A stretch of DNA of 41,926 bases from a virus, in the UHGV virus genome UHGV-0116964; one strand, written 5' to 3'. Position numbers and translations under genes: made by a program. Below the pieces are notes generated by a model that saw only the letters and a program-made list of their open reading frames with translations, did not search any database and was not told where the DNA came from. This document shows positions 1,437 to 20,201 of the stretch, piece by piece (the first letter of the stretch is position 1; each line of letters starts with the position of its first letter).

Positions 1437-1477
1437 AGCTCTCTCCAGTTGCCCGTTCGGGCCATTCAAAATCTTTT

Positions 1478-1720: not shown

Positions 1721-1758
1721 ATAATCTCCTTGAGGGAGGGTTACCCCTCCCGGTTTCG

Positions 1759-2877: not shown

Positions 2878-2882
2878 TCCCC

Positions 2883-5800
2883 TTATGCCTGAGTACGCAG
2901 CGCTTCAAGGCGGCGCAGGTCGAAGTCGTTCAGTTCGTCGGTGTAGTCAGCAGTGATTGGCGCTGGCCATTCACCTGTGTCGAATCCGGTTGCGATATTG
3001 CGCATCGCTTTGCGGTACTCGAGCATACCCAGCTCCAGTAGTTCAGCGGATGCCTCGATGATGGCGATCCAGTGGTAGTTCTCGTCTTTGTTGACGAAAA
3101 TCCAGAAGAACTGATCCAGCGCTGCGGTTTCGCAGTACATAGCCGCGCTCAGGTGATAATCACGTTCAATAATTTCCCGGTGTAGCCTGGCGCGCAGGCT
3201 TTCCTGCTTAACATTCCACATGCTGATGGTTTTCAGGTCAGCACCGATACGCACGCCGTCTAGGTCGATCTCAAGATCAGGGCGCACACGAACTTCCAGT
3301 CCCGTCTCCTCGTCAAAGCCAAAGTAGCTCACCTCAACGGCGCGGCTCGGGTGGGTTAGCAGCATGCCTGCGGTCGGGTGTGCCAGAAGCGCTTTTTGAA
3401 TATTCAGCGCGGTGCTCAGCTGCTGGCGGGTGACCAGCACTTTTCCTTCCGGGTTATCGCGCCAGGCATCCAGCAGTTCGTCGGCAAATACGGCATCTGG
3501 TTTGACTGCCTTCACGGCCTGGATCATGTCTGCTTTGGTACCGGACACTTTCAGTGGTGCCGGTTTCTGTGCTTCCTGAGCCACAAGGTCAGGGTTGATG
3601 ATTGCCAACTGCTCCAGCAGCGCGTCACGGCTGCCGCTGGTTTTAACCGGCGGCGGCAGGGTGGCGTTGTACTCTTTAATGCATGCCTTCATTGCCGTCG
3701 CCGTCTGCTTCTGGTCACCATCAATACGCTGGAAGTCAGCTGGCAGCGCCATATAGTTCTGTGCCGTTTCTTCCAGGTTAGCGCCAAGCGGAACCTGCGG
3801 CGGCAGGGTGGCGTTGTACTCTTCCAGTAACACCTTGATGTCGTCGGCAGACAGCAGCGCCGGCAGGCTGGCATTGTGCTCATCGATAAAGGCGCGCAGG
3901 GTCGCGGCCGTTGTGAATGCGCCTTCAGGGATCACCGGTTCAACGCTGAATTCTGCGTCCAGTAGTTCAGGCTGCAACGCCAGCGCATGCACCAAGTTGC
4001 CCATGTCCAGCACCGCTGAGCGCTCTTTGACGATGGTTTTCTCTACGTGGCGCGCATTGAAGTACATCAGCGAAACGCGCGCATCTTTCACCTGGGTTGA
4101 GCTGATGCCGTTGGCGGCGTGGTAAACCTCGTTTGGCAGCCCTTCATAGCGGCCTGGCTCGAAATAAGCGGGATAAACAACAGCTGGTTCGTCAGATTGC
4201 GCTTCTGGCTCGGTTTGTGCTGCAACTGGTTCGGTTTGGCTTACAGAATCGCTATTTTTGGCGACAGAATCCGTATTCTGGTTTACATCGTCCTTCTGGC
4301 TGGTATCTGACTCTTCACCAGACTCCAGACTGCTTTCGCCTGGCTGTACTTCATCACCAACATTTTTTTCATCACTGACAGTTTCTTGAACCTGCACATT
4401 GCTGGTGGTTTCCGTAGCCTGTTTCGTGCCATGAGTTGCTGAGTTCTGCAGTAAAGCCGTAACATCGAATATTCCGTTGCCGACATTTTTAACCAGTTCT
4501 TGTTCGGCTTTATGTGGTTGTGCTGTCGCTTCCTCTGCGCGGCGGCGTGCTTCTTCTTCACGTACGCGTTGCAGGTTCTCTTCGTGAGTGCAGAAGGATT
4601 TGCGCGGAGACTCCTTACCTTCAGGTTGGGGAATTTCCTGTGCTGCGGGTTCAGCCTCATGCAACGGCAATAACTCGACCGCGGAATTGAACGCGGCTGT
4701 CATGGTCTGGTTAACAAATTCCAGGTGAGCGACAGGAGTTAAATGAATATTTTCCGGTGCGATACGTACCAGGTTAAAAATAGCCGTGCGGTTAACACCC
4801 AGAACGCCTGGCTGATTGCGCAGGATGTTGCTCCATGATTTCCATGGTTCTTCTTTTTTGGTCACGATTTCTTTAGCGCGACGAAGAATGCTGCCCGGGA
4901 TCTCGAAGTGGTTGAAGTCCATAGGCAGAAGGGCACATGCAATCTCTAAATCGAGAGTGTCAAGGGTATGGTATGTATCAGGTCCACGGTCAGTGACGTA
5001 ACCGCCGTTGGCATTGGTTCCGGAATCAGTACGCTGCACACTACTGATGCGATTACCGGCGGCCCATTCGCGAACAAGGATACCGCGGTCGATGTGATCT
5101 GTAGCGAACCACAATTTCAAAAACTGGATTAAGGTTGCGAGTTCAGGGATTTTTCCATCGACAGGGAAGACTTTCTTAACGGCATTCACGACTTTATGAA
5201 TATCGTGCTCAATGGCTTTTTTGAATGCTTCCACATTCTCAGCTGCCAGCAGCAGGTTCTGGACGTACGCGTCATCGGTGTCCATCTCAAGGCGGACAAT
5301 CTCATTTTTCTGCCCTGCGTCGATGTGATAGAGATATTCACCATCACCGATGAACTGAGCCAGTACGCGCTGGCGGAATGGCAGGGTGGCAACAACGATC
5401 AGGTTCGGTTGCTGTGTCTGCTGGGATTGCTCTTCGGTATCGACTTCACCATCAACGACGCCACCTTCTGCCCGGCCGTTCTCGTCGGTCTGGATACCGT
5501 CCTCAACAGTGAGATCTTGACCAGTTGTAACGTCAGCAGCGTTGCTGGTTTCAGTTTTGAGCAACTGCAACTTACCACTGCGCCAGTCTTCTACCAGTTG
5601 ATTGCGGTCACCGGCATCGGTGTTCACCCAGTCAGACATGAATGCAGCGATCAATCTTGGTTCGTGCTCTTCGTCTGGTGTGAAAATGTCCTTAACCGCC
5701 CGAATCATTTTCCACTCAGCATTCAGGCTGAGTTTGGCGGTCGCGGGCACATCGTTCCTTGCCACAAGCAGGCTATGGAGATATGTATTGCCTTCATCCA

Positions 5801-6272
5801 GTGACATTTCGCTGGCAGCCAACTGCTGCTCTTTAGTGACGTGGGTTTGGTATTTATCGTTCATCAGATGGACGGCAAAGCGGACCGCTGGAGTACGGTT
5901 TTCAACCGGGACAATTTCGGACGCAGTCGCATCTTCAACGATTACGGTCGGAGTAGGTGTGTAGGGGGCGTCAACGGAACCAGTAGACACACCAGCGGCT
6001 TTTGGCAGCCAGGTGCGCCCATCGTCCTGAAGCTCGTAGCGATCACACCAGGTAAAATCAACTTCACCTTCTTTCGGCAGACCGTCGACAACTGGGAAAT
6101 CAGTGCGAATCGGTTTGGCGTAGTCCTTACCCCGACCTGTTTCGATACCTGCATCTTCCAGCGCAACATCCAGCATCAGATTGGCGCGAGCCTCGGTTTT
6201 AGCAGTGAACCAGACCACTGCATCTTGCTTTCCGGATTTCTGAGTGGCTTTAACCACATTAAAGAATTCCAT
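2883..6272 (-). CDS. recE: Exodeoxyribonuclease VIII (RecE-like) with long N-terminal extension
   Basis: 1129 aa; C-terminal ~300 aa has the RecE/lambda-Exo-like nuclease look; long acidic/low-complexity N-terminal region; gene order recE-recT as in Rac. Confidence 0.7.
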   Translation of the reverse strand: MEFFNVVKATQKSGKQDAVVWFTAKTEARANLMLDVALEDAGIETGRGKDYAKPIRTDFPVVDGLPKEGEVDFTWCDRYELQDDGRTWLPKAAGVSTGSVDAPYTPTPTVIVEDATASEIVPVENRTPAVRFAVHLMNDKYQTHVTKEQQLAASEMSLDEGNTYLHSLLVARNDVPATAKLSLNAEWKMIRAVKDIFTPDEEHEPRLIAAFMSDWVNTDAGDRNQLVEDWRSGKLQLLKTETSNAADVTTGQDLTVEDGIQTDENGRAEGGVVDGEVDTEEQSQQTQQPNLIVVATLPFRQRVLAQFIGDGEYLYHIDAGQKNEIVRLEMDTDDAYVQNLLLAAENVEAFKKAIEHDIHKVVNAVKKVFPVDGKIPELATLIQFLKLWFATDHIDRGILVREWAAGNRISSVQRTDSGTNANGGYVTDRGPDTYHTLDTLDLEIACALLPMDFNHFEIPGSILRRAKEIVTKKEEPWKSWSNILRNQPGVLGVNRTAIFNLVRIAPENIHLTPVAHLEFVNQTMTAAFNSAVELLPLHEAEPAAQEIPQPEGKESPRKSFCTHEENLQRVREEEARRRAEEATAQPHKAEQELVKNVGNGIFDVTALLQNSATHGTKQATETTSNVQVQETVSDEKNVGDEVQPGESSLESGEESDTSQKDDVNQNTDSVAKNSDSVSQTEPVAAQTEPEAQSDEPAVVYPAYFEPGRYEGLPNEVYHAANGISSTQVKDARVSLMYFNARHVEKTIVKERSAVLDMGNLVHALALQPELLDAEFSVEPVIPEGAFTTAATLRAFIDEHNASLPALLSADDIKVLLEEYNATLPPQVPLGANLEETAQNYMALPADFQRIDGDQKQTATAMKACIKEYNATLPPPVKTSGSRDALLEQLAIINPDLVAQEAQKPAPLKVSGTKADMIQAVKAVKPDAVFADELLDAWRDNPEGKVLVTRQQLSTALNIQKALLAHPTAGMLLTHPSRAVEVSYFGFDEETGLEVRVRPDLEIDLDGVRIGADLKTISMWNVKQESLRARLHREIIERDYHLSAAMYCETAALDQFFWIFVNKDENYHWIAIIEASAELLELGMLEYRKAMRNIATGFDTGEWPAPITADYTDELNDFDLRRLEALRTQA

Positions 6273-6411
6273 GTGAGATCCTCATTTTTGGGTGTTAGAA
6301 TCCCCGGACCATTGATAGCGCCCATTGGGTTAACTTTGGTTTTAATGTTGTTTCCGGTGTAACTTTGGTCGGTACCACCGGACGTAGATCCCGCCTTGCG
6401 CGGGTTTTACG

Positions 6412-6573
6412 TTAGCCTTCGTGAGCCATCTGGTCGTGCGAAGCGCAACGTTTGGAGCAATACTCTTTTTCTTTGCGCGCCAGCTGTGAGCCGTTGCGAT
6501 AGAGAAGGGTGCTCTTGATTACTTCCTCCGTTTTAACCGGCTTGCCGCAATATCCGCATTTCTTGTCTAACAT
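6412..6573 (-). CDS. Small zinc-binding protein (YdaE-like), 53 aa, absent from the ORF track
   Basis: My own translation: MLDKKCGYCGKPVKTEEVIKSTLLYRNGSQLARKEKEYCSKRCASHDQMAHEG; CxxC...CxxxC pairs; GGAGG SD 6 nt upstream; same slot as ydaE next to recE in Rac. Confidence 0.45.
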   Translation of the reverse strand: MLDKKCGYCGKPVKTEEVIKSTLLYRNGSQLARKEKEYCSKRCASHDQMAHEG

Positions 6574-6584
6574 GACATCCTCCG

Positions 6585-6791
6585 CTAGTGGCTGAGTCCA
6601 TGCCCCAGACCGTTCAGATAAACTTCAACCAGCAAATCCTTGGTGTAAGTCATTTCTACGCCGCGATGCAGATACAAACGTCCGCGAGCGTTAGCTGATG
6701 CCGTCCAGGTTGAGTCTTTGTGTTTGACGAGCATCCCCGGCTGAACTGCGCCGCGGTTTACTGTCTGTGTACCGTAGTGCTGATGAACCAT
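6585..6791 (-). CDS. Small early protein at the Kil position, 68 aa (track ORF extends to 6935 via a TTG start)
   Basis: Internal ATG at 6791 preceded by GGAGAA; first gene downstream of the OL-like operator; function not recognised. Confidence 0.4.
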   Translation of the reverse strand: MVHQHYGTQTVNRGAVQPGMLVKHKDSTWTASANARGRLYLHRGVEMTYTKDLLVEVYLNGLGHGLSH

Positions 6792-7036
6792 GATGTTCTC
6801 CAGTTTTTCTGAGTGAACTTCGCTGGTGGTGCCGCGGCGCTGATCTTCACGGTTGAGCGTTTTAACTCTGCAATTCACCACCGCGAAGCTCACTCTGTGC
6901 TTTGCCCTTGTCGCCAGGCTGGCGGAACGTTTCAAACCTACTGCGCGTTAATCTCACCACCTCATTCCGGTCTTCGTATGCCCCGGACGGCTTCTTCGTG
7001 GGCGTCCTGCTTTGGTGGTTGTGTTGATGGAGTAAT

Positions 7037-7072
7037 TAAACACAATGTTTATTTGCGTGTCAACATAATGAG
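7037..7072. promoter_or_regulatory. OL-like operator pair (TAAACACAATGTTTA ... CAACATAATG)
   Basis: Palindrome TAAACA-CAA-TGTTTA is near-identical to the OR site TAAACA-TAA-TGTTTA at about 9107; the two cores are 23 bp apart at both loci. Confidence 0.5.
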
Positions 7073-7175
7073 TGTTTTTATATAAACAAAAAGTTTAGTT
7101 GGTTGCGCTCGTTGGCACGAGTAGTATGTTTTATGGTCTATTTTGTGGTTATAAAAAAATCGATGAGGGTGAGTT

Positions 7176-7382
7176 ATGGATCGTGACGAACTGGAAGAAG
7201 ACCGCGCAGCGTTTATTGCGGGGGAGATTGGTGGCGCAGTTGTCAGTCTGATAGCTAACGGGATTGTGATCAGCCGCGATGCGATTGTGGATAGTCTAGA
7301 GGCTAAGCGCAGGGTAGTGGGAAACGTCATTCACAAGTGGGTATTGCGGGATGCGGTTGCTATGGTGAGAAAAGGGCAATAA
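7176..7382 (+). CDS. Hypothetical 68 aa protein, convergent with the cassette
   Basis: Track ORF with GAGGGTGAG SD; ends in the shared bidirectional terminator; no recognised domain. Confidence 0.5.
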   Translation: MDRDELEEDRAAFIAGEIGGAVVSLIANGIVISRDAIVDSLEAKRRVVGNVIHKWVLRDAVAMVRKGQ

Positions 7383-7412
7383 AAAACCCAGTTCGGTAAC
7401 TGGGTTATTGCT
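7381..7412. terminator. Bidirectional intrinsic terminator
   Basis: AACCCAGTT-CGGT-AACTGGGTT hairpin flanked by an A-run upstream and T-rich downstream; strongest on the minus strand, directly after cassette gene A. Confidence 0.6.
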
Positions 7413-7838
7413 TTATTCAACAGATGATGGGGGGGTCGGTGCTTTCTTAAAGATCGACCACTGAGAAATGTAGGTCAGCAACCTTGAGCTTAACTCGAGT
7501 TCTTTTCGTAATATTTCGTCATAACGTTTTTTTGCTGCTTGCATGGTCGCATCACTAGCGTGATTGTCATCCATAATGATCTTTAGCCTTTTCTTTTCTC
7601 GGCTTGAGCATATTGTAAATAACAGACCTGTAAATGACATTCCACCAAAATCCTTTAACGTTTTGATTACAAAAAGAAGAATCAAAGACAGAAAAGGAAC
7701 AGATCTGTAGGCCCAATCACGAAACTCACCGTCAGGAAAGAAGATAGGAATAGCATCTGTAGCATAACCACATATGAGGGAGACAATTAGAAAAGGTAGT
7801 CCATTTTTAGCTACATTTTTAACGTTATCGTTAGCCAT
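7413..7838 (-). CDS. Cassette gene A: ~141 aa membrane protein (hydrophobic N-terminal half, charged helical C-terminal tail)
   Basis: Track ORF 7413..7871; the ATG at 7838 has a GGGAAA SD and overlaps the gene B stop (ATGGCTAA); AT-rich codon usage. Confidence 0.6.
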   Translation of the reverse strand: MANDNVKNVAKNGLPFLIVSLICGYATDAIPIFFPDGEFRDWAYRSVPFLSLILLFVIKTLKDFGGMSFTGLLFTICSSREKKRLKIIMDDNHASDATMQAAKKRYDEILRKELELSSRLLTYISQWSIFKKAPTPPSSVE

Positions 7839-8214
7839 GATTTTTTCCCGAGAACGATTTCGAGTCAACATGTAACTTTTGTGTTTTGACTACATAATAC
7901 GCAAATCCAATCTTAACTAACCAATAAGCTACTGGTATGAGTGCTGCGTAAAGAGGGATATAGTACATAACCTTACCTCCTGTTAACCACACTATAACAC
8001 CTAGCATCACTATTAGCGCGACAGAAAATGCTTTCAGCCCAACACAGCTATCAGGATGTGAAACACTGTTCCTTAGCAACAATATCCTGGATTCATCAAG
8101 TGTGTAAGGAATATCGCCAACATGATTTTCGATTTTTGGGAAGGTCTCAAATACTTCAACCCGATCAATCGAAATAATTGAGCTTGATTGATGATCTAAG
8201 CAAACTGCAGCCAC
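7831..8214 (-). CDS. Cassette gene B: 127 aa protein with soluble N-terminal part and two C-terminal hydrophobic helices
   Basis: Track ORF; GTG start with GAGGG SD, 2 nt after the gene C stop; AT-rich. Confidence 0.6.
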   Translation of the reverse strand: MAAVCLDHQSSSIISIDRVEVFETFPKIENHVGDIPYTLDESRILLLRNSVSHPDSCVGLKAFSVALIVMLGVIVWLTGGKVMYYIPLYAALIPVAYWLVKIGFAYYVVKTQKLHVDSKSFSGKNHG

Positions 8215-8216
8215 TG

Positions 8217-8540
8217 TTATCCCTCTCGAACCTTTAGTGATACTCGGTTAGCAGCAAATGTGGCAATGAAACCACATTCTACACATATAACAGGGAATGC
8301 CCATATACCTCGGCCAGCTGAATGAGGTAGAGGAAGGGTAATTATTGCAGGATAGTCTTGACTATCTTCTCGTGGAGGAACTCCCCAAAGCGTATGCTTA
8401 CAAAGCGGACAGGCCATCTCGCCATGTTTTTCTTCGAGGCGTTGAAAATAATCTCGAAATTCTTGTCTTGATATTGATAGCGTCAATGCTGTTGTATTGA
8501 CACTTTCCTGACTTTTTTCTTCTTCAACCTGTTCGCCCAT
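8217..8540 (-). CDS. Cassette gene C: ~107 aa zinc-ribbon-like protein (CPLC...CVEC)
   Basis: Track ORF 8217..8552 (TTG start); internal ATG at 8540 with GAGAG SD; two CxxC pairs; acidic N-terminus. Confidence 0.55.
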   Translation of the reverse strand: MGEQVEEEKSQESVNTTALTLSISRQEFRDYFQRLEEKHGEMACPLCKHTLWGVPPREDSQDYPAIITLPLPHSAGRGIWAFPVICVECGFIATFAANRVSLKVREG

Positions 8541-8651
8541 CTCAGCTCTCAATATAATGATAATTAACTGGTAAGTGAATTTTGCATATCGTTAAGATGT
8601 ATCCCATTGGTACAGAAACATCTGAGGGGTAAGTAGCTTTTAACTACCGTG

Positions 8652-9047
8652 CTACTCACCATCCCCCTTAATCCGCCGTCCCATGTACTTGGCGTACAGT
8701 TCATCGAGTTCTTTCAACCGTAGAGATACGATCCGCAACATGTTCTGTTGTTCTTCTTCGTTTGGGAGTTGATTATAGAGTTCCAACAGTCTCCGTTCGT
8801 CGTGTCTCAAACCGTCCTTAGCATCCACGTCCTGACCTAGAACCCACTCAAGACTTACGCCTAGCGCATCGGCAAGTTTTATTGCTGAGCTTTTTCCTAT
8901 CGCTCCTCTGACAAACCAGTTGTTGACTGATTGTGCGCTCACACCACAGATTCTCGCTATATCCGCTTTGGATATGCGCTTCTTCTCGATGATTTCATTT
9001 AACCGCCGAACCTGCGGGTTATCTGTTTGGTGTGTGTTTTTTCTCAT
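8652..9047 (-). CDS. Prophage repressor, DicA/RacR-like HTH (XRE family)
   Basis: 131 aa; N-terminal HTH (ISKADIARICGVSAQSVNNW); C-terminal LLELYNQLPNEEE resembles the DicA tail; divergent from a cro-like gene across operator palindromes. Confidence 0.8.
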   Translation of the reverse strand: MRKNTHQTDNPQVRRLNEIIEKKRISKADIARICGVSAQSVNNWFVRGAIGKSSAIKLADALGVSLEWVLGQDVDAKDGLRHDERRLLELYNQLPNEEEQQNMLRIVSLRLKELDELYAKYMGRRIKGDGE

Positions 9048-9080
9048 ATATCAAGATTCTAAACTAAAAGTTTATCGCCT

Positions 9081-9121
9081 CAACATTCATAATGTTGACT
9101 TGAACATAAACATAATGTTTA
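9081..9121. promoter_or_regulatory. OR-like operator pair with divergent promoters
   Basis: CAACAT-tcata-ATGTTG (about 9081..9097) and TAAACA-TAA-TGTTTA (about 9107..9121); TTGACT -35 at about 9095 for the rightward promoter; TAGAAT -10 on the minus strand 7 nt before the repressor ATG (near-leaderless). Confidence 0.55.
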
Positions 9122-9150
9122 ATTTGGTTCGTTATTACTTGGAGCCAAAT

Positions 9151-9384
9151 ATGAAAGCACTTGATAAAGCAATATGCATCGTAGGGGGTGCAACCCGTTT
9201 AGCAGAAAAGCTCAATGTATCCCCAATGACGGTCAGTCACTGGCGTCACCGTGACAATGGATTCGTACCGGCTAACCGTGTCATTCCTATTTTCAATGCT
9301 ACAGGTGTAACTCCACATGAGTTACGCCCTGATTTGTACCTCAACCCTACGGATGGATTACCGGCTCAGGAAGCGAGGGCATAA
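9151..9384 (+). CDS. Cro-like HTH regulator (YdaS-type)
   Basis: 77 aa from the ATG at 9151 (GGAG SD); MKALDKAICIVGGATRLAEKLNVS...GFVPA pattern; divergent from the repressor. Confidence 0.7.
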   Translation: MKALDKAICIVGGATRLAEKLNVSPMTVSHWRHRDNGFVPANRVIPIFNATGVTPHELRPDLYLNPTDGLPAQEARA

Positions 9385-9386
9385 CC

Positions 9387-9926
9387 ATGCAGTCACTATC
9401 ACTTCATCAAAATAGCGGATATCAAACGGCTGCGATGATAAATCGCAATCAACCTGTCTCGGTAGATAAACATGACCAGATCCGCGATGCCGTTCGTGCG
9501 TGGGCGGGTGTAGATGGTCAGGATGTCGTTTCTGCTCTGATCATCGAAGAGTACCAGGCTCAAGGGGGAGACGAGATCACTTTCCCTGATGACCTCAGCC
9601 GACAGCGTCAGAAGCTTTTCCGCTTTCTGGATAACCATTTCAACAGCGAACGGTACCGCGAAAACGTTCGCCAGCTGACTCCGGCAATCCTCGCTGTCCT
9701 GCCGATTGAATACCGCAATCGTCTGCTACCAGAAGACAACGTAATGGCTCGTCTGGCAAGGCTGGAGAAGGAAACCAGCGAAGCGAAGATTGCTGTCGCA
9801 ATGGATGCGCCACGTCATCAGAAGCTGAAAGAGTTGAGCGAGGGGATCGTGGAGATGTATCGCGTTGACCCTGGGTTAACCGGTCCGTTGATGGAAATGG
9901 TGCAGATTATGCTGGGGGCTATATGA
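9387..9926 (+). CDS. YdaT-like (CII-position) protein
   Basis: 179 aa; immediately follows the YdaS-like gene as in Rac; family assignment from memory only. Confidence 0.5.
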   Translation: MQSLSLHQNSGYQTAAMINRNQPVSVDKHDQIRDAVRAWAGVDGQDVVSALIIEEYQAQGGDEITFPDDLSRQRQKLFRFLDNHFNSERYRENVRQLTPAILAVLPIEYRNRLLPEDNVMARLARLEKETSEAKIAVAMDAPRHQKLKELSEGIVEMYRVDPGLTGPLMEMVQIMLGAI

Positions 9927-10010
9927 CCGGTTCAAAAATGGCGAAAGCCGCGGTGCTCGAACACCAACGGCTTTCAGGTGCAAAAACAGTGCGTAATTGC
10001 GGAGAACAGT

Positions 10011-10919
10011 ATGTCAAACACCGCTGAAATAATCAATTTCCCAAATAAAACCGAACAACCGGGAGGTCGTATGGCCGACCTGTCGAACGGGTATACCAAG
10101 GTCGCTAACGAGATCCAACAGCTTAAGCCTCGCCTGAGACTGTCAGGCCGGGAATGGCAATGTTTTGAGGCGGTGATCTGGCTTACCTACGGCTGGAACA
10201 AGAAACAGGACCGCGTGACAAATACGGTTATTGCCGAGCTTACGGGCCTGAGCGATACGCATGTATCGGACGCGCTTAAGTCTCTCGCAGAACGCAAAAT
10301 CATCTTTTCACAGAAGCAGGGCATGATGAAAATCGTCGGTGTAAACACTGACCTTTCAGCATGGATTTTAGACAAACCGGAAACGGGAAGAAAATTCCCG
10401 AAAACGGGAAAATCCTTCCCGAAATCAGGAATAACCTTCCCGAAAACGGTAGACACCCAATACAAGAACAAGAACAGTATTAAAAGATCTTCGTCCGAGA
10501 ATTCTGACGAATCCTCTGACGCACGTCTGAAGAAATTTTTATCAACTCATCCTGAAGCTGCGGTCTACACACCATCCGGTGCGAAGTGGGGCTCTGCTGA
10601 AGACCTCGAGACAGCTAAGTGGATTTCCTCCAGGGTGAAGCTGATTAACCCAACCTGCAAAGCCCCGGACATGACCTCCTGGTCTAACACTGTTCGCCTG
10701 ATGCGCCAGATAGACGACCGGTCGCACCAGGACATCTGCGCGCTGTATGACTGGGCTAGCAAACACCACTTCTGGCAGACCAACATCCTGAGTCCCGAAA
10801 GCCTGCGTAAGCAGTGGGACAAGCTGACAATGCAGCGTAACGCCGGAGGTGAGCAGCGCGCTGTCAAGCCAGATCTGGACTTCAACAACACTGACTGGGC
10901 CTATGGGGTGATCCGATGA
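10011..10919 (+). CDS. Replication initiator O (lambda O-like)
   Basis: Track ORF 9978..10919; from the ATG at 10011 (GGAGAA SD) the N-terminus MSNTAEIINF...ADLSNGY matches lambda O MTNTAKILNF...ADLDDGY; iterons embedded in the gene. Confidence 0.8.
   Translation: MSNTAEIINFPNKTEQPGGRMADLSNGYTKVANEIQQLKPRLRLSGREWQCFEAVIWLTYGWNKKQDRVTNTVIAELTGLSDTHVSDALKSLAERKIIFSQKQGMMKIVGVNTDLSAWILDKPETGRKFPKTGKSFPKSGITFPKTVDTQYKNKNSIKRSSSENSDESSDARLKKFLSTHPEAAVYTPSGAKWGSAEDLETAKWISSRVKLINPTCKAPDMTSWSNTVRLMRQIDDRSHQDICALYDWASKHHFWQTNILSPESLRKQWDKLTMQRNAGGEQRAVKPDLDFNNTDWAYGVIR
10377..10454 (+). repeat. Origin iterons: four copies of TTCCCGAAAACGGGAA-like units at 21-bp spacing, followed by an AT-rich stretch
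   Basis: Units at about 10377, 10395, 10416, 10437; encode the FPKTG peptide repeats in O; same arrangement as lambda ori inside O. Confidence 0.6.
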
Positions 10920-11605
10920 AATCTCTTGCAGAGCAGATGCGTAACCACGACCGCGAGCAGATGAGCCGCATGGCCCATAACCTGCCAGAGCAGTACCAGG
11001 AGTGCGCGCCGGTCGAGCAGGTGGCGCAGGTATTCAACAAGCTGTTCAACGAGCTGCGCGCCGCGTTCCCGGCCAGCATGGCGAACTTCCGCACCCAGGA
11101 AGACCTGAACGAATTCCGCCGTCAGTGGCTGCTGGCGTTTCAGGAGAACGGGATCCACACCATGGCTCAGGTCGATGCCGGCATGCGCATTGCCCGCCGC
11201 CAGGAGCGCCCATTCCTGCCGTCGCCGGGCCAGTTCGTCGCCTGGTGCAAGCAGAGCGGCGGCGCGCTGGGCGTCAACGTTGACCAGGTGATCGCCGAAT
11301 ACTGGGACTGGCGTAACCGCTCGTTCGAATTCATCTCCAGCGAGCAATTTCCATGGTCGCAGCCGGTCATGTACCACATTTGCGTAGAATTGCGCCACCG
11401 CAGCACCGAGCGCCAGTTAACGCATGGTGAACTGGCACGCGAGGCAGGCGATCTGCTGGACATGTGGGAAAGGCGCGTCACCGAGGGTAAGCCAGTGCCG
11501 CCGGTACGCCGGGCTATTGCCGCACCAGCTGCCGAGCAAGGGCCGACGCCGATCCAGCTGCTGCTGGCCAAGTACAACCGCAACAAGTCGAACGGGATGG
11601 TGTGA
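10916..11605 (+). CDS. Replication protein P (helicase loader, lambda P-like)
   Basis: 229 aa; MKSLAEQMRNHDREQM...RPFLPSPGQFVAWC is near-identical in pattern to lambda P; ATGA overlap with O. Confidence 0.85.
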   Translation: MKSLAEQMRNHDREQMSRMAHNLPEQYQECAPVEQVAQVFNKLFNELRAAFPASMANFRTQEDLNEFRRQWLLAFQENGIHTMAQVDAGMRIARRQERPFLPSPGQFVAWCKQSGGALGVNVDQVIAEYWDWRNRSFEFISSEQFPWSQPVMYHICVELRHRSTERQLTHGELAREAGDLLDMWERRVTEGKPVPPVRRAIAAPAAEQGPTPIQLLLAKYNRNKSNGMV

Positions 11606-11664
11606 CATGAACATAACAATCCGTGAGCAGGTGCTGGCAGCCCTGCGCAACAACCCAGGGTTGA

Positions 11665-11847
11665 ACAACGCCAAACTGGCAGGGCTTCCCGGAGTGGTAC
11701 ATCATCGATCAGGACTATCGGGGGCAGAAGTACGCGAAGGACAAGCAGGTTGCGCGTTGTGGCAACGCAGTTCCGCCGCCATTCGCCGAGGCACTGGTGA
11801 GGGCTAATTTACCGGAGCTTTGTCAGCAGAAAGAGATCGCAGCTTAA
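11665..11847 (+). pseudogene. C-terminal fragment of a C5-cytosine DNA methyltransferase (motif IX-X remnant)
   Basis: One frame reads ...NWQGFPEWYIIDQDYRGQKYAKDKQVARCGNAVPPPFAEALVRANLPELCQQKEIAA*, matching QGFPD...GNAV; no N-terminal catalytic part upstream (abuts P). Confidence 0.4.
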
Positions 11848-11946
11848 TGTCCGAGTTTCAGAACATGGTGTAACAAATCCTGCTACTTCAATGACGTAGA
11901 TTCAAACCTGATATAATTAGGCTCTTCACAACACGAGGAGCCTAAA

Positions 11947-12183
11947 ATGCACCATTACATGATCCCTATCAACGGAACTGTTCACCTGATCAAGACTGAC
12001 TCTCTAATCCCTGAAGGGACTGAGTATAGCTTTGAAGGAGAAAGTCTAATCTGCGCTCATGCCACTTTTAAATCTGGGACGTATGGCTTCCTGATACCAA
12101 AGGGAAATCAGTTGAATAGAGAGCATGCGTTCTGGCATGTAAGTGGAATTCACCCTAATCCCCTGGGAATGGATAAATCGTAA
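11947..12183 (+). CDS. Hypothetical 78 aa protein (AT-rich insert between the two methyltransferase-tail repeats)
   Basis: Track ORF; no recognised domain. Confidence 0.4.
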   Translation: MHHYMIPINGTVHLIKTDSLIPEGTEYSFEGESLICAHATFKSGTYGFLIPKGNQLNREHAFWHVSGIHPNPLGMDKS

Positions 12184-12299
12184 TCCATAATATGCATGCC
12201 ATCGTCCTGAACATACGGTGGCATGCATCCGGCACTACAACAGAAACGTTAAAGTGCAAACAATACAATTCGAGCAATATTCAACCTGTCACAGATGGC

Positions 12300-12428
12300 G
12301 AATACCACCGCCATTTCGTGCATTCTGTGGTTTCTATTACCCATTGCGTTAATGCTGTCCAATCATCAGCTCGCTGAGGCGCTGGTTAGGGCTAACCTAC
12401 AGGAGCTTTGTCAGCAGAAACAAATAGC
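12300..12428 (+). pseudogene. Second, frameshifted copy of the methyltransferase C-terminal tail
   Basis: The 3' ~55 bp (...EALVRANLQELCQQKQIAA*) is a diverged direct repeat of 11790..11847; upstream HCVNAV resembles GNAV but in another frame. Confidence 0.35.
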
Positions 12429-12452
12429 GGCGTAATAAAACATCGCTAATTC

Positions 12453-12480
12453 AACCCGCTACGGCGGGTTTTCTTTTTTT
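12453..12480 (+). terminator. Intrinsic terminator
   Basis: AACCCGC-TACG-GCGGGTT hairpin followed by TTCTTTTTTT. Confidence 0.7.
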
Positions 12481-12542
12481 ACTACTGACAGAAAATTAAC
12501 AATTTGTGCTCTTAAAGCGTTGATCATTTCCGCGCATAGGTA

Positions 12543-12562
12543 TACTGTATAAAAACACAGTA
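12543..12562. promoter_or_regulatory. LexA (SOS) box TACTGTATAAAAACACAGTA
   Basis: CTGT-N8-ACAG; overlaps a candidate promoter (TTGATC ... TATACT) about 20 nt upstream of the dinI-like gene. Confidence 0.7.
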
Positions 12563-12580
12563 AATGCAATGGGGGCCATT

Positions 12581-12814
12581 ATGAAAGTTGAATTAACCAT
12601 TGATCGCATGAAAGAACTTCCTAAAGGCGCAGTACCAGCACTGGAGAAAGAACTGCTTAAGCGCCTGAATGATCACTATGACAATTGCAGGCTCACAATC
12701 CGCCGTGCCGGGGCCGATGGGTTAAGTGTTTTTGGTGGTGACAAGGACGATAAAAAGAAAATTGAATCAATCCTCCAGGATACCTGGGAAAGCGCTGACG
12801 ACTGGTTTTATTAG
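12581..12814 (+). CDS. dinI: DinI-like protein
   Basis: 77 aa from the ATG at 12581; C-terminal ESILQDTWESADDWF matches E. coli DinI (SEILQETWESADDWF); LexA box upstream. Confidence 0.85.
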   Translation: MKVELTIDRMKELPKGAVPALEKELLKRLNDHYDNCRLTIRRAGADGLSVFGGDKDDKKKIESILQDTWESADDWFY

Positions 12815-12931
12815 AATTGCGCTTAAGGCTGGCGCGCATTTTTCAGAATACCGCAATTTGCGTAACCCTCTGATGCTGCTGCCGACAATCTTTAATCGCG
12901 TCTGTTAGTCGCTCGAAGGGAGAACATAAAT

Positions 12932-13180
12932 GTGAGTGATTCAGCTTTGCAAACGTCAGAAGACAACTGGTATGACATTGTAAGAAGGTCTGACGGCTGC
13001 GTGGTGTTTAGCTTTCCTTCATCGGGCAGGCATCTAATTTATCGCGTCAATGGCATGGTTTCTATGCGGCCTTTGCTGGATGATGAAGAGGTCTTTACTC
13101 CTAATGGTTTTATGCAGTTTATTCACCGTCTCGGCTACCGGGTAACCCCACCTTCTGATAATATGAAATCAACGGTCTGA
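12932..13180 (+). CDS. Hypothetical protein
   Basis: Track ORF (GTG start); no recognised domain. Confidence 0.4.
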   Translation: MSDSALQTSEDNWYDIVRRSDGCVVFSFPSSGRHLIYRVNGMVSMRPLLDDEEVFTPNGFMQFIHRLGYRVTPPSDNMKSTV

Positions 13181-13214
13181 ACAACCGTAACCTACTGCGC
13201 CACGGAGAGAAACC

Positions 13215-13814
13215 ATGGCGCACGAACTACAACTCATCAAGCATTCCTCAGGAATCCTGATCCCCGCTACGCCGGAGACCAGTGATTTACTGCAATCAAA
13301 AATCAAACTCGGCTCCGTACTGGTGGCTGAGTTCCGGCAGGTACGCAACCCGGCCTTTCACCGTCGTTTCTTCGCGTTACTCAATCTCGGTTTCGAATAC
13401 TGGGAACCCACCGGCGGGGCAATCTCCTCCAACGAACGCAAGCTGGTAACCGGCTATGCCAAGTTCCTTGCCTCATTCGCGGGAAGTGAAGCAGCACTCC
13501 TGGATGCTGCTGAGCAATATCTGGACCGCATCGCCGATAAGCGTACTGGTAGCATCTGCGCCTGTAAGTCATTCGATGCATATCGTGCATGGGTCACTAT
13601 TGAGTCCGGCCATTACGACGCCATTCAGCTGCCTGACGGCACCCTCCGCAAACATCCCCGCAGTATCTCATTCGCAAATATGGATGAAACTGAGTTCCAG
13701 CAGCTGTACAAAGCCGCGCTCGATGTTCTGTGGCGATGGATACTCTCCCGATCATTTCGCAGTTGTGAAGAGGCAGAAAACGCCGCCGCCCAGCTGATGA
13801 GCTTTGCGGGGTGA
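13215..13814 (+). CDS. Conserved phage protein of unknown function (nin-region)
   Basis: 199 aa track ORF. Confidence 0.55.
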   Translation: MAHELQLIKHSSGILIPATPETSDLLQSKIKLGSVLVAEFRQVRNPAFHRRFFALLNLGFEYWEPTGGAISSNERKLVTGYAKFLASFAGSEAALLDAAEQYLDRIADKRTGSICACKSFDAYRAWVTIESGHYDAIQLPDGTLRKHPRSISFANMDETEFQQLYKAALDVLWRWILSRSFRSCEEAENAAAQLMSFAG

Positions 13815-14020
13815 TGGCGATGAAATTTTCCTGGTTCCACCATCACGAATGCACCACCGAACAGGCCGACGAGCTGGTGGAGAAATACCGGGCGCGCGGT
13901 GTAAAGACAGAGCGCAGCCTGAATCGCGACAACATCACCTGGACCGTCAGCGCGCAATTGCCGGAAGGCGATAACGCGCCTCGCCCGAGCCGGGTATGGC
14001 AAAGCAAGGCGTGGGGGTGA
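13811..14020 (+). CDS. Hypothetical small protein
   Basis: Track ORF, ATGA-coupled to the upstream gene. Confidence 0.4.
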   Translation: MMAMKFSWFHHHECTTEQADELVEKYRARGVKTERSLNRDNITWTVSAQLPEGDNAPRPSRVWQSKAWG

Positions 14021-14022
14021 GC

Positions 14023-14313
14023 ATGGCAAATTTACGCAAAGAGGCTCGTGGTCGTGATTGTCAGGTTCGAATTCCCGGCGTCTGCAACGGTAACCCGGAA
14101 ACGTCTGTACTGGCGCACATTCGCCTGGCCGGGTTATGTGGCACCGGAATCAAACCGCCTGATCTGATTGCCACCATTGCATGCTCTGCCTGTCACGACG
14201 AGATCGACCGCCGTACACATTTTGTCGATGCTGAGTATGCTAAAGAATGCGCGCTGGAAGGTATGGCGAGAACGCAGGTTATCTGGCTGAAAGAGGGGGT
14301 AATCAAGGCGTGA
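14023..14313 (+). CDS. YbcO-like cysteine-rich putative nuclease
   Basis: ~96 aa from the ATG at 14023 (GTGGGGG SD); [13 protein letters not shown]...[11 protein letters not shown] cysteine pattern; sits just before rusA as in DLP12. Confidence 0.6.
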
Positions 14314-14672
14314 ATACTTACAACATCACATTGCCCTGGCCGCCGAGCAATAACCGCTACTACCGCCATAATCGCGGGCGCACGCACATCAGCGCAGAAG
14401 GGCAGGCATACCGCGATAACGTCGCCCGAATCATTAAAAACGCAATGCTGGATATCGGTCTGGCTATGCCTGTGAAAATCCGCATTGAGTGCCACATGCC
14501 GGATCGCCGTCGCCGTGACCTGGATAATCTGCAAAAGGCCGCTTTTGACGCACTCACCAAAGCAGGTTTCTGGCTGGACGATGCTCAGGTCGTTGATTAT
14601 CGCGTTGTGAAGATGCCCGTTACCAAAGGTGGAAAGCTGGAACTGACAATCACCGGGCTGGAGGCCGTATGA
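14310..14672 (+). CDS. rusA: Holliday junction resolvase RusA
   Basis: GTG start; [35 protein letters not shown]...[28 protein letters not shown] is near-identical to E. coli RusA. Confidence 0.9.
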
Positions 14673-14805
14673 CATTTGAATCCTGTTTTTCCGATCACCT
14701 CCGCGTTCGCTGGCAGCGGCTTCGCTTATACCACTTTCCCGGCTCTGTGCTAACGGACTACCGGATACTGAAGAATTACGTGAAAACTTATGCTGGAGAA
14801 GCGCT

Positions 14806-15588
14806 ATGAACCTTGAAAACACAGTGAAATACCACTTCGCTAAATCCACACTGATTAGCGATTCTCCGCGCGCTACCGCCTCCGATTCACTGACCGGTAC
14901 CGACATAATGGCTGCCATGGGCATGACGCAGGAACGCGCCGCAATGGGTTACAGCGCCTTCCTCGGCAAGATGGGCATAAGCAATAACGACCGGGATCGG
15001 GCGATCGGTCTGCTGGCTGAGTACGCGATGACAAAATGCGACAAGGTTGCCGCACTGCGTAAGCTCGGTGCCGCGGTTAAACCTCAGGTGATGCACCAGT
15101 TGGCCACCTTCGCTTTTGAGGACTATTCCCGCAGCGCTGCCAGCGTGAAGCAGTGCGATTGTTGTGACGGTCAGGGCTTCATTGAGGCTGACGTGTTTAC
15201 CAATAAATTCCGTAAGCCAGAAGGGAAAATGACCGTGTCCGGGATGGTGAAGGTCAAAGAATCCATCAAAGTGCTATGCAAAAAGTGTAATGGCTCTGGT
15301 GTGGTTAGTGCTTCTTGCAGTGATTGCCATGGGCGCGGCAAGGCAGTGAACCAGGCTCTTACTGAGAAACAGGGCGTTCCTGTTCTGGCTGACTGTAAGC
15401 GCTGCGGAGGGCGTGGGTATGAACGACTTCCGTCGACTGAAGCCTATGCTGCTGTATGCCAGATTACTGACGCCATTAGCCTGGACACCTGGAAAAAGTC
15501 TGTTAAGCCATTCTACGACCTGCTGATCACGAAATTTGATATCGAAGAGTCCTGGGCCGAAAAACAGCTTAAGCAGATAACGCGGTAA
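14806..15588 (+). CDS. Late-gene antiterminator Q-like protein with four CxxCxGxG zinc-finger repeats
   Basis: 260 aa; position between rusA and the lysis genes; followed by a terminator about 100 nt downstream. Confidence 0.6.
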   Translation: MNLENTVKYHFAKSTLISDSPRATASDSLTGTDIMAAMGMTQERAAMGYSAFLGKMGISNNDRDRAIGLLAEYAMTKCDKVAALRKLGAAVKPQVMHQLATFAFEDYSRSAASVKQCDCCDGQGFIEADVFTNKFRKPEGKMTVSGMVKVKESIKVLCKKCNGSGVVSASCSDCHGRGKAVNQALTEKQGVPVLADCKRCGGRGYERLPSTEAYAAVCQITDAISLDTWKKSVKPFYDLLITKFDIEESWAEKQLKQITR

Positions 15589-15687
15589 CGCCTATAGCGA
15601 TAGCCTATGATTTTGTCTTGGGCTATTTACTTTTCCCGAATCTGTGTTAATTTTGTCCCAACGATGGGTTAATGCCTTCGTTTCAAG

Positions 15688-15715
15688 CCCTGCGGATAAC
15701 ACCGTGGGGTTTTTT
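15688..15715 (+). terminator. tR'-like intrinsic terminator downstream of Q
   Basis: CCCTGCGG-ATAACA-CCGTGGGG (two GU pairs) followed by TTTTTT. Confidence 0.5.
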
Positions 15716-15792
15716 GCGTTTCTGGAGACAGCAATACCAAGGTTCGAGACATTCAGGTAAAATTGATGCATTACAGGATGTGAGGTTGGGGA

Positions 15793-16362
15793 ATGAATAA
15801 TCTACCCGATGATTACTTTTTGGATGCGGACGACGAACTCGTTGCTTTTCTGGAGAAGCAGGGCGAGGATTGTATACGCGAAATTCACCAGTCCAACGCA
15901 CTAAACAAAGAAAATGGCCAGAAGTTATTGAGTATACTCATTGCTGGCGTGGGCTCGTCATTTTTGTTATTAACGCAACGTACAGGTTTTGATTACCTCA
16001 CCGCTGGAATGTCTGTTTTTTTAGTCTACTGGGCAATGTGTGCGGCTTATCTTGTTCGCTGCGTCCTCGTTGTAAGGTCACGAGCTCTCGTGTCATCGAC
16101 ACCCTATGCGCTTTACCATGATGGCTATAAAGGGTTTACTGAAGATGATTACACTGGTTTTGAGTCGAAAGGATTTTCAGGAAAGCGTTCAACATTGAAC
16201 GTCTTGCGGCGCTACCGGCTTGCGGATTTAACCAGAATGGCTGAAATGAGTAAAAAAGAGAATGCCAGAATAGGCCGAGAACTAGAAAGGGTAAGGATCG
16301 CTACAATCCTCACCCCTGTTTGTGCACTTGTAATCTCAGTACTTACTTACCTTTTTTTCTGA
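15793..16362 (+). CDS. Cargo membrane protein (3 predicted TM helices) at the Q-lysis junction
   Basis: 189 aa track ORF; AT-richer than neighbours; no recognised domain. Confidence 0.5.
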   Translation: MNNLPDDYFLDADDELVAFLEKQGEDCIREIHQSNALNKENGQKLLSILIAGVGSSFLLLTQRTGFDYLTAGMSVFLVYWAMCAAYLVRCVLVVRSRALVSSTPYALYHDGYKGFTEDDYTGFESKGFSGKRSTLNVLRRYRLADLTRMAEMSKKENARIGRELERVRIATILTPVCALVISVLTYLFF

Positions 16363-16492
16363 TGTTTTCAGCAGAATCGGCAACAAAGGTATAACCTGTC
16401 CTCAGATTTCTTTCGGCTGGCTGTGGAGCCGGTTTAGGCTGTGGTGCGGGTTGAGGCTTATTTTCTCCAGATGGTTTGTTTGATTCACTCAT
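16343..16492 (-). CDS. Small proline-rich ORF (49 aa), antisense, absent from the ORF track
   Basis: My translation: MSESNKPSGENKPQPAPQPKPAPQPAERNLRTGYTFVADSAENIRKKGK; GGAGAA SD 5 nt upstream; 3' end overlaps the 189 aa gene. Confidence 0.35.
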   Translation of the reverse strand: MSESNKPSGENKPQPAPQPKPAPQPAERNLRTGYTFVADSAENIRKKGK

Positions 16493-16584
16493 ATAATTCT
16501 CCATGTTTGATAGGGTTATTTTTGGCGATTTAACGATATCAAATACAGTGATTTGCTGCTAGAGCATGCACTTATCTATAACTC

Positions 16585-16610
16585 GCCCCGGCACCCGCTG
16601 GGGCTTTTTT
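16585..16610 (+). terminator. Intrinsic terminator
   Basis: GCCCCGG-CACCCG-CTGGGGC hairpin followed by TTTTTT. Confidence 0.55.
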
Positions 16611-16726
16611 ATTTCCGGCTCACGGTAATCATCCGCTACGTGCTTTGTTGATAAATCCAACCCGTGAAGCCTGAGCCTATTTCCCCTCATACCTGAGAGG
16701 ACTCACAGCAATTAAGAGGGGGCTAA

Positions 16727-18713: not shown

Positions 18714-18767
18714 CATTACAGAAGCCCTTCACTGAGGGGCTTCGATAATGGAGCACTGGGATTATTC

Positions 18768-19388
18768 ATGAACAGACCACACCCACCAGCGCATTTTACG
18801 ATGCCACCTGACCCGAAGCCTTACATCAGCATAATGCCCGCCATTGACGTTGGCGAGTGGCTGAATCAGCACATCCTGAGCGATGAGGGTGACCTCTACA
18901 ACCCTGACCACCAGCATTTGCTTGAAGCGGATCTGTGCTTTCTCTGGGCGTCGAACACTTTCGAGAAGAAAGGGCGGTCCGTGCTGGGGCAGGCGGAAGA
19001 AGTGGCAATGCGGGCTGGAGGCTGGCAGAAAGCGCGGATGGAGCAGCAGATGTATGAATGGTTCGGCAGGGTGCCGCAGTTCATCATCACGCTGGCCGCC
19101 GATTACTGCTCGCAATGTTCCGATCTGGAATTCTGCGCGCTGATAGAGCACGAGCTTTATCACATCTGCCAAGCGACAGATGAATTTGGTGTGCCGAAGT
19201 TCACGCAGGAAGGGCAGCCAAAGCTGAAGCTGCGCGGCCATGACGTGGAAGAGTTTGTGGGCGTGGTTCGCCGTTACGGTGCGAGCCGTGATGTGCAGGA
19301 AATGATTGATGCGGCGAATCAGCCAGCGGAGGTTGCTCATCTCGATATTGCCAGAGCTTGCGGGACGTGCATGCTGCGACTGGCTTAA
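18768..19388 (+). CDS. Putative HExxH metallopeptidase-like phage protein
   Basis: 206 aa; IEHELYHI contains HExxH; cysteine pairs (CSQC, CGTC). Confidence 0.45.
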   Translation: MNRPHPPAHFTMPPDPKPYISIMPAIDVGEWLNQHILSDEGDLYNPDHQHLLEADLCFLWASNTFEKKGRSVLGQAEEVAMRAGGWQKARMEQQMYEWFGRVPQFIITLAADYCSQCSDLEFCALIEHELYHICQATDEFGVPKFTQEGQPKLKLRGHDVEEFVGVVRRYGASRDVQEMIDAANQPAEVAHLDIARACGTCMLRLA

Positions 19389-19418
19389 AACTGGACTGAA
19401 TAAGACGAATGGTGATTT

Positions 19419-19892
19419 ATGGCTGCATTAAAACCTGATGTGAAAGCCTTCATCATTCAGTCGCTTGCGTGCTATGACACGCCGACGCAGGTGGTTGAGG
19501 CTGTCCAAAAAGAATTCGGGATCAAGATCACCCGCCAGCAGGCTGAATCTCACGACCCCACGAAGGCCAGCGGTAAGACGCTCGCCAAAAAGTGGATCGA
19601 GATGTTCCACGCTACGCGCGAACGGTTCCTGACCGAAACCAGCGACATTCCGATCGCGAACAAATCCTATCGCCTCCGCGTGCTTGACCGCATGGCAACC
19701 AAAACCGAGGGGATGAAAAACTTCTCCCTGACGGCGCAGCTGATTGAACAGGCCGCGAAAGAGGTTGGCGACGCTTACACCAATAAGCTGAAGGTTGAAA
19801 GCACTGGCAAGGATGGCGGCCCGATCAAGACCGAGACGACCAACCTCACCGCAGATCAGGCCGCAGAGATTTACCGCAAGATGATGGGGTGA
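19419..19892 (+). CDS. Putative terminase small subunit
   Basis: 157 aa; immediately upstream of the large terminase; family not confirmed. Confidence 0.45.
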   Translation: MAALKPDVKAFIIQSLACYDTPTQVVEAVQKEFGIKITRQQAESHDPTKASGKTLAKKWIEMFHATRERFLTETSDIPIANKSYRLRVLDRMATKTEGMKNFSLTAQLIEQAAKEVGDAYTNKLKVESTGKDGGPIKTETTNLTADQAAEIYRKMMG

Positions 19893-19917
19893 TAGCCGCA
19901 TGTTGCGGCTATGGATT

Positions 19918-20130
19918 CTAGGCTTGTTTTGGTCGAGTAATACGGCCAAGAGCTTTAATTGCAGCGACTTTGACGTTGTGATTTAGATCCGAAGATAAAT
20001 CAAGTAAGCGATTTACATGAGCTGGCGTTGCTGAAGCACTCTCGCCGAGAGCATAAATTGCAGACAATTTTACTTCGTTGTTAAGGTCGTTGGTTAATTC
20101 CAACAACTTAGCGCTAACTGCTGGTGTCAT
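19918..20130 (-). CDS. Antisense HEAT-repeat mini-protein (~70 aa)
   Basis: Internal ATG of track ORF 19918..20178; perfect AGGAGG SD 4 nt upstream; two repeats of the form NxxVKxxAIxALGxI (PBS-lyase HEAT-like). Confidence 0.55.
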   Translation of the reverse strand: MTPAVSAKLLELTNDLNNEVKLSAIYALGESASATPAHVNRLLDLSSDLNHNVKVAAIKALGRITRPKQA

Positions 20131-20201
20131 AAAACCTCCTGTAATTGGTACATAAACAATATCAACTTTGTTACGCAAAAACTCAATGCCTGGAATTGTT
20201 T

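Follow-up and report, generated by a model that had tools for sequence, protein, structure and literature searches.

The model of Hendrix, Juhala and Clark for the mosaicism of lambdoid phages reportedly features "morons" as well as short conserved sequences at module edges that are reused for homologous exchange. In phage lambda, the nin5 deletion removes non-essential DNA from the nin region and is viable. Phage mEp237 (NC_019704/JQ182730), a relative of phi80 and HK225, has an intact ren gene, a 65-aa gene and 123 methylase codons; gp46 was annotated as a truncated "C-5 cytosine-specific DNA methylase", i.e., a 134-aa ORF starting at an upstream GTG, and the depositors noted its likeness to the C-terminus of methylases only. 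Intact orphan enzymes of 650 to 715 aa are encoded by Klebsiella phage 5 LV-2017 (ARB15725), the IMG/VR contig IMGVR_UViG_2541047941_000003, and prophages of E. coli H5/H6 and ST536. These enzymes contain motifs I, IV, and VI and a long variable middle, and their genes occupy the same genomic position before dinI/ninB as the gene remnants described here.

Here, we analyzed this position in the UHGV virus genome UHGV-0116964 (from here on, the window; 41,926 nt), which is an E. coli lambdoid prophage of the phi80/mEp237-like type. Altogether, it is highly likely that the DNA between P and dinI/ninB is the scar of two separate recombination events and does no enzymatic work. The region represents ordinary prophage gene decay at a mosaic joint; its remnants are already known from the annotation of methylase fragments in the mEp237 record and, in related genomes, by PGAP, and beyond annotation its importance is small. 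The window and mEp237 are 99.7 to 100% identical over the DNA that they share, and both have a gene for a 78-aa protein (ORF78; gp47 in mEp237), whose promoter is annotated in mEp237, followed by a methyltransferase remnant (tail 2), a terminator, and dinI. However, the junction in the window differs from that in mEp237, and the window keeps only 27 codons of ren and 55 codons of the methylase (tail 1). Tail 1 and the last 55 residues of the intact enzymes share between 91% (Klebsiella phage) and 100% (IMG/VR contig) identity, whereas motifs I, IV, and VI and the variable middle are missing from the window. Moron-like features of the window are a small gene of lower GC content between genes that are adjacent in relatives, the sharp mosaic joints, and the reuse of short conserved sequences at module edges for homologous exchange, and a promoter is predicted for the small gene; unlike in the moron model, the boundary sequence is a pseudogene fragment rather than an intergenic linker, and the cassette lacks a canonical terminator. 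As in lambda nin5, the stretch from P to the nin/Q genes has lost several kilobases of non-essential DNA with retention of viability. A nin5-like loss of terminators was considered and rejected; because intrinsic terminators in the deleted segment do not exceed chance and the one at 12453-12480 is still present, no nin5-like gain of N independence is expected.

The locus lies between the replication gene P, which carries the annotation replication protein P both in mEp237 and in RefSeq entries for E. coli, and dinI or, further downstream, ninB (13215-13814) (Table 1). Many complete E. coli chromosomes, e.g., AR_0118, share it at 100% identity, and at 99 to 100% identity, the arrangement is present in ~30 complete E. 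coli genomes and ~13 IMG/VR contigs. The early region of the window (1-16683) is ~96 to 97% identical to mEp237/HK225-like phages, with roughly half of the query aligning. In relatives of the ancestral type (Klebsiella phage 5 LV-2017 and L051), dinI is the gene immediately 3' of the methyltransferase gene. The strong terminator upstream of dinI directly follows the stop codon of tail 2. We also observed that TACTGTATAAAAACACAGTA, which presumably represents a near-consensus LexA box (CTGT-N8-ACAG), overlaps the predicted dinI promoter.

Table 1. Features of the locus between P and dinI in the window
Feature	Position	Strand	Description
Replication gene P	10916..11605	+	Intact, phi80 gene 14 type; 229-aa ORF; left flank
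ren-like winged-helix gene, 5' end	11607..11687	+	Codons 1-27; truncated by deletion; 114 aa when intact
Chimeric 66-aa ORF	11607..11807	+	ren codons 1-27, then 39 out-of-frame codons across tail 1
Deletion junction	11679..11687	+	Single retained copy of the 9-nt repeat GCAGGGCTT; from three-way sequence comparison
Tail 1	11680..11847	+	Last 55 codons and stop codon (11845-11847) of a C5-cytosine methyltransferase
Predicted ORF78 promoter	11891..11917	+	-35 ATGACG (11891-11896), extended -10 TGATATAAT (11909-11917)
ORF78	11947..12183	+	78 aa; small orphan gene; phrog_30079 (PHROG E 7e-49)
Spacer	12184..12330	+	Travels with the ORF78 cassette
Inverted repeat	12192..12228	+	14-nt arms ATGCATGCCATCGT / ACGGTGGCATGCAT, 9-nt loop, no T-run; directly 3' of ORF78
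Tail 2	12331..12435	+	Decayed ~35 codons, 3' end of a second methyltransferase allele; CVNAVQSS / LAEALVRANLQELCQQKQIAA, then stop
Intrinsic terminator	12453..12480	+	Same sequence 3' of the methyltransferase stop codon in intact relatives
LexA-box-like palindrome	12543..12562	+	TACTGTATAAAAACACAGTA; upstream of dinI
dinI homologue	12581..12814	+	Intact; Pfam DinI E 3.8e-26

Tail 1 derives from a phage C5-cytosine methyltransferase with a full length of ~650 to 715 aa. Its peptide (QGFPEWY...CGNAVPPPFAEALVRANLPELCQQKEIAA) is encoded in a frame different from that of the ATG at 11607, and 50 of its 55 residues (91%) agree with the C-terminus (residues 661-715) of the methylase of 715 aa that Klebsiella phage 5 LV-2017 encodes (11680-11844; tblastn against the whole window, E 1.6e-27). 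Moreover, tail 1 equals codons 598-652 of the intact L021 gene throughout (100%), and the end of the mEp237 gp46 fragment encoding its last 55 residues equals tail 1 except for one nucleotide. This 134-aa fragment, which contains tail 1, matches positions 270-320 of the 324 positions of Pfam PF00145. The motifs kept in tail 1 are the end of motif IX (QGFP, as QGFPEWY) and motif X (GNAV, as CGNAVPPPF). In the frame of tail 1, stop codons are located immediately upstream, and no ORF of at least 30 aa with an ATG, GTG, or TTG start spans 11680-11847. An earlier note on this DNA had recognized a methyltransferase C-terminus directly after P without a catalytic half, which agrees with these findings, but it missed the 5' end of a ren-like gene at 11607-11687 that is fused to tail 1. 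The ren codons 1-27 are identical to those of mEp237 gp44 and of ren in L021. The intact 114-aa product matches Pfam HTH_24 and phrog_142, the family of the Ren-like exclusion protein; at 11607 in the window, only codons 1-27 are present and the remainder is out of frame, so that the winged-helix domain of ~110 aa is incomplete. The resulting 66-aa ORF has no match in Pfam or NCBIfam and is a by-product of the deletion described below; it is listed as hypothetical protein WP_001299077.1 in the PGAP annotation of identical E. coli genomes.

The comparison with related prophages carrying an intact gene, as suggested in the earlier note, revealed how tail 1 was formed. IMG/VR was scanned with a 19-nt motif from the tail, and 44 contigs were classified; prophages with an intact gene were found, and the closest of these is IMGVR_UViG_2541047941_000003 (loci L021 and L049), which encodes a methyltransferase of 652 aa (E 6.5e-14 and 52.3 bits for TIGR00675 dcm, under the curated cut-off of 100.65). 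A single mismatch (2,234 nt, 99.96% identity) separates window 9454-11687 from L021 1-2234, and window 11679-12001 corresponds to L021 5809-6131 with no mismatches in 323 nt (100%). The L021 segment missing from the window comprises the rest of ren, six small ORFs, and the first 597 methyltransferase codons. The six ORFs are the 65-aa gene as annotated in mEp237 (extendable to 84 aa from an upstream GTG in the ORF listing), followed by ORFs of 125, 80, 67, 107, and 85 aa; we note that the latter five (L021 2689-4097) are missing from both the window and mEp237. In L021, 9-nt direct repeats GCAGGGCTT are located at 2226-2234 and 5809-5817, with a start-to-start distance of 3,583 nt. Because these repeats bound the missing segment and one copy is left in the window, we conclude that tail 1 was left by a microhomology-mediated loss of 3,583 bp, most likely in a single deletion, which joined ren codon 27, out of frame, to methyltransferase codon 598. 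In this way, the lineage of the window (~30 complete E. coli genomes) lost both an orphan C5-methyltransferase and a ren-like gene. The reverse, i.e., that the L021 type arose from the window type by insertion, is implausible, as two interrupted ORFs would have had to be rebuilt exactly. mEp237 has a different junction, at which an imperfect 13-nt repeat marks a deletion of 2,865 bp that overlaps the one in the window and is independent of it.

Based on tblastn with the 715-aa enzyme, only residues 661-715 and 695-715 are matched in the 41.9-kb window, and no methylase is found elsewhere in it. In the L021 protein, motif I (FxGxG, AdoMet binding) is present as FAGGG (34), motif IV with the catalytic cysteine (PC) as SPDC (100), and motif VI as ENV (141), followed by QGFP (598) and GNAV (625). 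Motifs I, IV, and VI are absent from the window; with these motifs gone, the prophage is predicted to be unable to methylate DNA, and no methyltransferase activity would be expected from the window.

Tail 2 has a different origin. The sequence at 12371-12436 repeats 11783-11848 over 66 nt with 55/66 identities (83%; blastn E ~1e-11) and a spacing of 588 nt, close to the second copy of ~55 bp that had been placed ~585 bp to the right of the first. Weaker homology extends to the left as far as ~12331, which is also where homology to KL53 starts. Just upstream of the 66-nt repeat, a degenerate GNAV-like segment (CVNAV) lies in another frame, as the earlier note had pointed out; the source of this frameshift is one extra A at 12368, which is specific to the window lineage and missing in the relatives L040, L052, and L016, where tail 2 is in frame for ~32 to 35 codons (CVNAVQSSLAEALV...). 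A 46-aa ORF at 12295-12435 with a hydrophobic N-terminus was rejected as a gene, as it is due solely to the lineage-specific +1 A. In KL53 and MSB1_9D, PGAP annotates the equivalents of tail 2 as a "DNA methyltransferase" pseudogene without an N-terminus. The intact alleles in L051 and L024 naturally end in sequence of the tail 2 type, and the terminator and DNA that follow them are the same as in the window. The order intact methyltransferase, ORF78, tail 2, and dinI is found in L040, L052, and L021 and L049; in L016, it can be followed up to tail 2, and in L050 the genes are arranged alike, with a methyltransferase gene of at least 490 open codons that is cut by the end of the locus. In the relatives with the cassette and tail 2, the upstream gene has roughly 650 to 750 open codons. 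In L051 and Klebsiella phage 5 LV-2017, the methyltransferase gene is directly before dinI without ORF78. The coexistence of ORF78 and tail 2 with an intact upstream methyltransferase in relatives argues that tail 2 predates the loss of the catalytic half and that the insertion of ORF78 did not inactivate the gene from which tail 1 derives. We infer that tail 2 is the scar where the promoter-ORF78 cassette joined the DNA next to dinI. Tail 2 and the spacer are 83 to 86% identical to L016 (tail 2, 83%) versus 98% for ORF78; this faster evolution is as would be expected of dead DNA. The spacer (12184-12330) has no similarity to methylases, and a query spanning 12176-12372 is present only in genomes with the same cassette.

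The AT-rich ORF of 78 aa that had been noticed between the tails is indeed present, with a GC content of 43.9% compared with 40.4% for its promoter region, 52.3% for the window, and 62.8% for P. The ORF78 homologues amount to a handful of proteins of 75 to 78 aa that share MHHY...HPNPL. The reading frame is open in nine of nine nucleotide variants, and the ORF78 segment is the most conserved part of the region. Relative to the homologue in MSB1_9D (42% protein identity), the differences by codon position are 30/27/58, i.e., biased toward the third position. Taken together, the sequence comparisons indicate that ORF78 is a real orphan gene; it was acquired separately. A word-indexed protein search with ORF78 returned two close clusters only, and an exhaustive HMMER search returned four credible relatives in addition to spurious repeat proteins; Pfam, NCBIfam, and PADLOC gave no match, and a fold comparison gave none of significance. 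The single-sequence AlphaFold model is mediocre (pLDDT 62); the protein can be described as an all-beta orphan with conserved MHHY and HPNPL ends. For annotation, PGAP's 66-aa "hypothetical protein" is a deletion chimera, while the real gene, ORF78, is left without annotation in all identical E. coli RefSeq genomes; its MSB1_9D homologue and mEp237 gp47 are annotated.

In the predicted ORF78 promoter, which is annotated in mEp237, ATGACG is located 15 nt upstream of the extended -10; a stricter consensus scan did not flag it. In MSB1_9D, the block around the predicted promoter and leader (11891-11946) is nearly invariant and conserved better than the ORF. A GGCTC...GAGCC hairpin (11920-11942) overlaps the ORF78 Shine-Dalgarno sequence GAGGAG. 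This hairpin is a weak candidate for masking the ribosome binding site, as its 5' arm could be located before the transcription start and the likely transcript folds weakly. Directly downstream of ORF78, no canonical terminator was found in the window, and the only candidate is the hairpin formed by the inverted repeat at 12192-12228, which may act as a weak transcript end or stabilizer; the MSB1_9D homologue is followed by a GC-rich hairpin and a T-run that are terminator-like by eye. ORF78 is missing between the same neighbors in L051, Klebsiella phage 5 LV-2017, AR_0119, and L013, and the cassette occupies an accessory hot spot beside an orphan methyltransferase gene and dinI. We consider it rather doubtful that the promoter-ORF78 cassette encodes a new small host-directed or anti-defense/superinfection-exclusion protein, with the methyltransferase 3' end, which is always found before it, serving as a "handle" of homology for its exchange among lambdoid prophages.

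A 19-nt block, GGAGCTTTGTCAGCAGAAA, is identical in the two tails. AR_0119 and the IMG/VR locus L013 have the same ren-tail junction as the window and a single tail. In AR_0119, this tail equals tail 1 up to 11832, then has all five tail-2-type bases (11833-11844), and is directly before the terminator and dinI; ORF78 is gone. This form is the outcome that would be expected of a crossover between the tails within GGAGCTTTGTCAGCAGAAA. In MSB1_9D, a tail-2-type tail is joined to the module with the ORF78 homologue, and in KL53 a mixed tail precedes dinI. Thus, both tails are still usable as a substrate for homologous recombination, and one such crossover deletes ORF78. The series from the intact gene to the truncated gene and then to the tail-to-tail crossover that removed ORF78 illustrates stepwise mosaic decay in textbook fashion.

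Among 5,426 complete E. coli genomes, a near-full-length gene is present in only four; one (CUWW10) has the mEp237 form, ~30 have the form in the window, and ~4 to 5 have the AR_0119 form. The 3' ends retained next to dinI or ORF78 have at least 12 different lengths, from ~27 to ~137 codons. However, the survey of truncated tails was seeded with the 19-nt motif from the tail itself and is, therefore, silent on whether tails are preferentially retained. A published study (PMC2614495) describes that McrBC kills cells whose genome is methylated by an incoming C5-methyltransferase. We speculate that the frequent decay of the gene in E. coli may come about because foreign m5C is attacked by McrBC-type nucleases, making the enzyme costly; the decay series may, accordingly, reflect counter-selection of foreign m5C methylation in this species. 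In L011 (IMGVR_UViG_2847583173_000005), a 27-codon tail precedes dinI and a methylase fragment of ~155 codons is located 1.2 to 1.7 kb further upstream; this is a more complex rearrangement of the same methyltransferase gene.

Based on these comparisons, we suggest the following history. The ancestor would have had an orphan C5-methyltransferase gene, the terminator, and dinI. In the first event, which is likely the older of the two, this ancestor would have recombined with a phage carrying a methyltransferase gene followed by the promoter-ORF78 cassette. The right join would have been illegitimate, ~35 codons before the stop codon of the resident allele (B). The product would have been an intact methyltransferase gene (A), ORF78, a remnant of allele B of ~105 nt (tail 2), the terminator, and dinI. 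Subsequently, tail 2 would have drifted, gaining the +1 frameshift in the window lineage. The direction and mechanism of this event are read from present-day arrangements and may have differed. The second and recent event is the 3,583-bp deletion shown above between the GCAGGGCTT repeats, at the expense of ren codons 28-114, the six small ORFs, and methyltransferase codons 1-597; what it left is ren codon 27 running into tail 1 in a different frame. ORF78 and dinI are both intact, each with its own predicted promoter.

The earlier note had proposed a single methyltransferase gene that was disrupted by insertion or recombination, leaving two pseudogene tails and a new small gene. That the tails are methyltransferase remnants generated by deletion and recombination, and that the small ORF is a separate acquisition, is borne out by our analyses. 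A single event that split one gene is not, as the tails come from two alleles that are 83% identical and the catalytic half was lost in a separate 3,583-bp deletion. In the version of this idea in which the ORF78 cassette inserted near the 3' end with duplication of the target, both tails would have arisen at once and the gene would have been inactivated in the same step. The tails do form direct repeats flanking the cassette, as such an insertion would predict. However, identity between the repeats reaches only 83%, and different intact alleles naturally end in one or the other type; moreover, relatives with the cassette and tail 2 keep a full-length upstream gene, and the catalytic half was removed by a separate deletion whose left end lies within ren. 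We therefore regard a single insertion as highly improbable. Tail 2 could conceivably also stem from an old duplication within the locus, with later divergence and gene conversion. With regard to the second event, we had initially read the window as mEp237 minus 718 bp and replaced this reading by the single 3,583-bp deletion after the intact gene in L021 was found. Two sequential deletions, i.e., one of 2,865 bp of the mEp237 type and then one of 718 bp between the same 9-nt repeats, would leave a junction that by itself looks the same as that left by one deletion. The window and mEp237 differ by exactly 718 bp at GCAGGGCTT, 2,865 and 718 add up to 3,583, and the mEp237 form exists in the E. 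coli genome CUWW10, all of which fit this route. It is less parsimonious, however, as it invokes two events where one suffices, and the flanks in the window are closer to L021 (1/2,234 and 0/323 mismatches) than to mEp237 (26/2,388 and 3/1,222), and we consider it unlikely.

Could the tails have been kept for a function, e.g., as a selected recombination "linker" through which cassettes are swapped, an RNA element, or a translated peptide? The many lengths of the tails at the left edge of the dinI and ORF78 modules and the crossovers inside the tail in AR_0119 and MSB1_9D would be in line with this idea. In contrast, their apparent retention is an ascertainment effect of seeding the search with the tail motif, an Rfam scan of 11300-13300 gave noise only (anti-hemB, E 0.44), tail 1 is without an in-frame start, and tail 2 is frameshifted and evolves faster than its neighbors. 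A selected function of the tails is, thus, very unlikely. There is a negligible chance that errors in sequencing or assembly produced the frameshifts and the truncation and that the strain has an intact gene; the same junction and the extra A at 12368 are present in dozens of independently assembled complete genomes and in IMG/VR contigs, the recurrence of the arrangement in ~30 complete genomes and ~13 IMG/VR contigs argues that it is not an artefact, and the phage mEp237 record likewise counts against this explanation. Accordingly, we favor gene decay by two separate recombination events.

Several observations concern the surroundings of the locus. An 82-aa ORF at 12932-13180, between dinI and ninB, belongs to phrog_340 and is conserved in mEp237 and related prophages. 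The 179-aa ORF at 9387-9926 is CII-like in the mEp237 annotation and assigned to the YdaT family by PGAP. A 142-aa database protein (P0003) consists of the N-terminal part of this 179-aa protein and the last 60 residues of ORF78, which points to a further genome in which O, P, and the tails were lost in a separate deletion of ~2.4 kb. Finally, the prophage is mosaic beyond this locus, with a late region from ~18.7 kb (18714-25000) that is 98.9% identical to Citrobacter phage Omnitron and 88 to 90% identical to SEN34-type phages.
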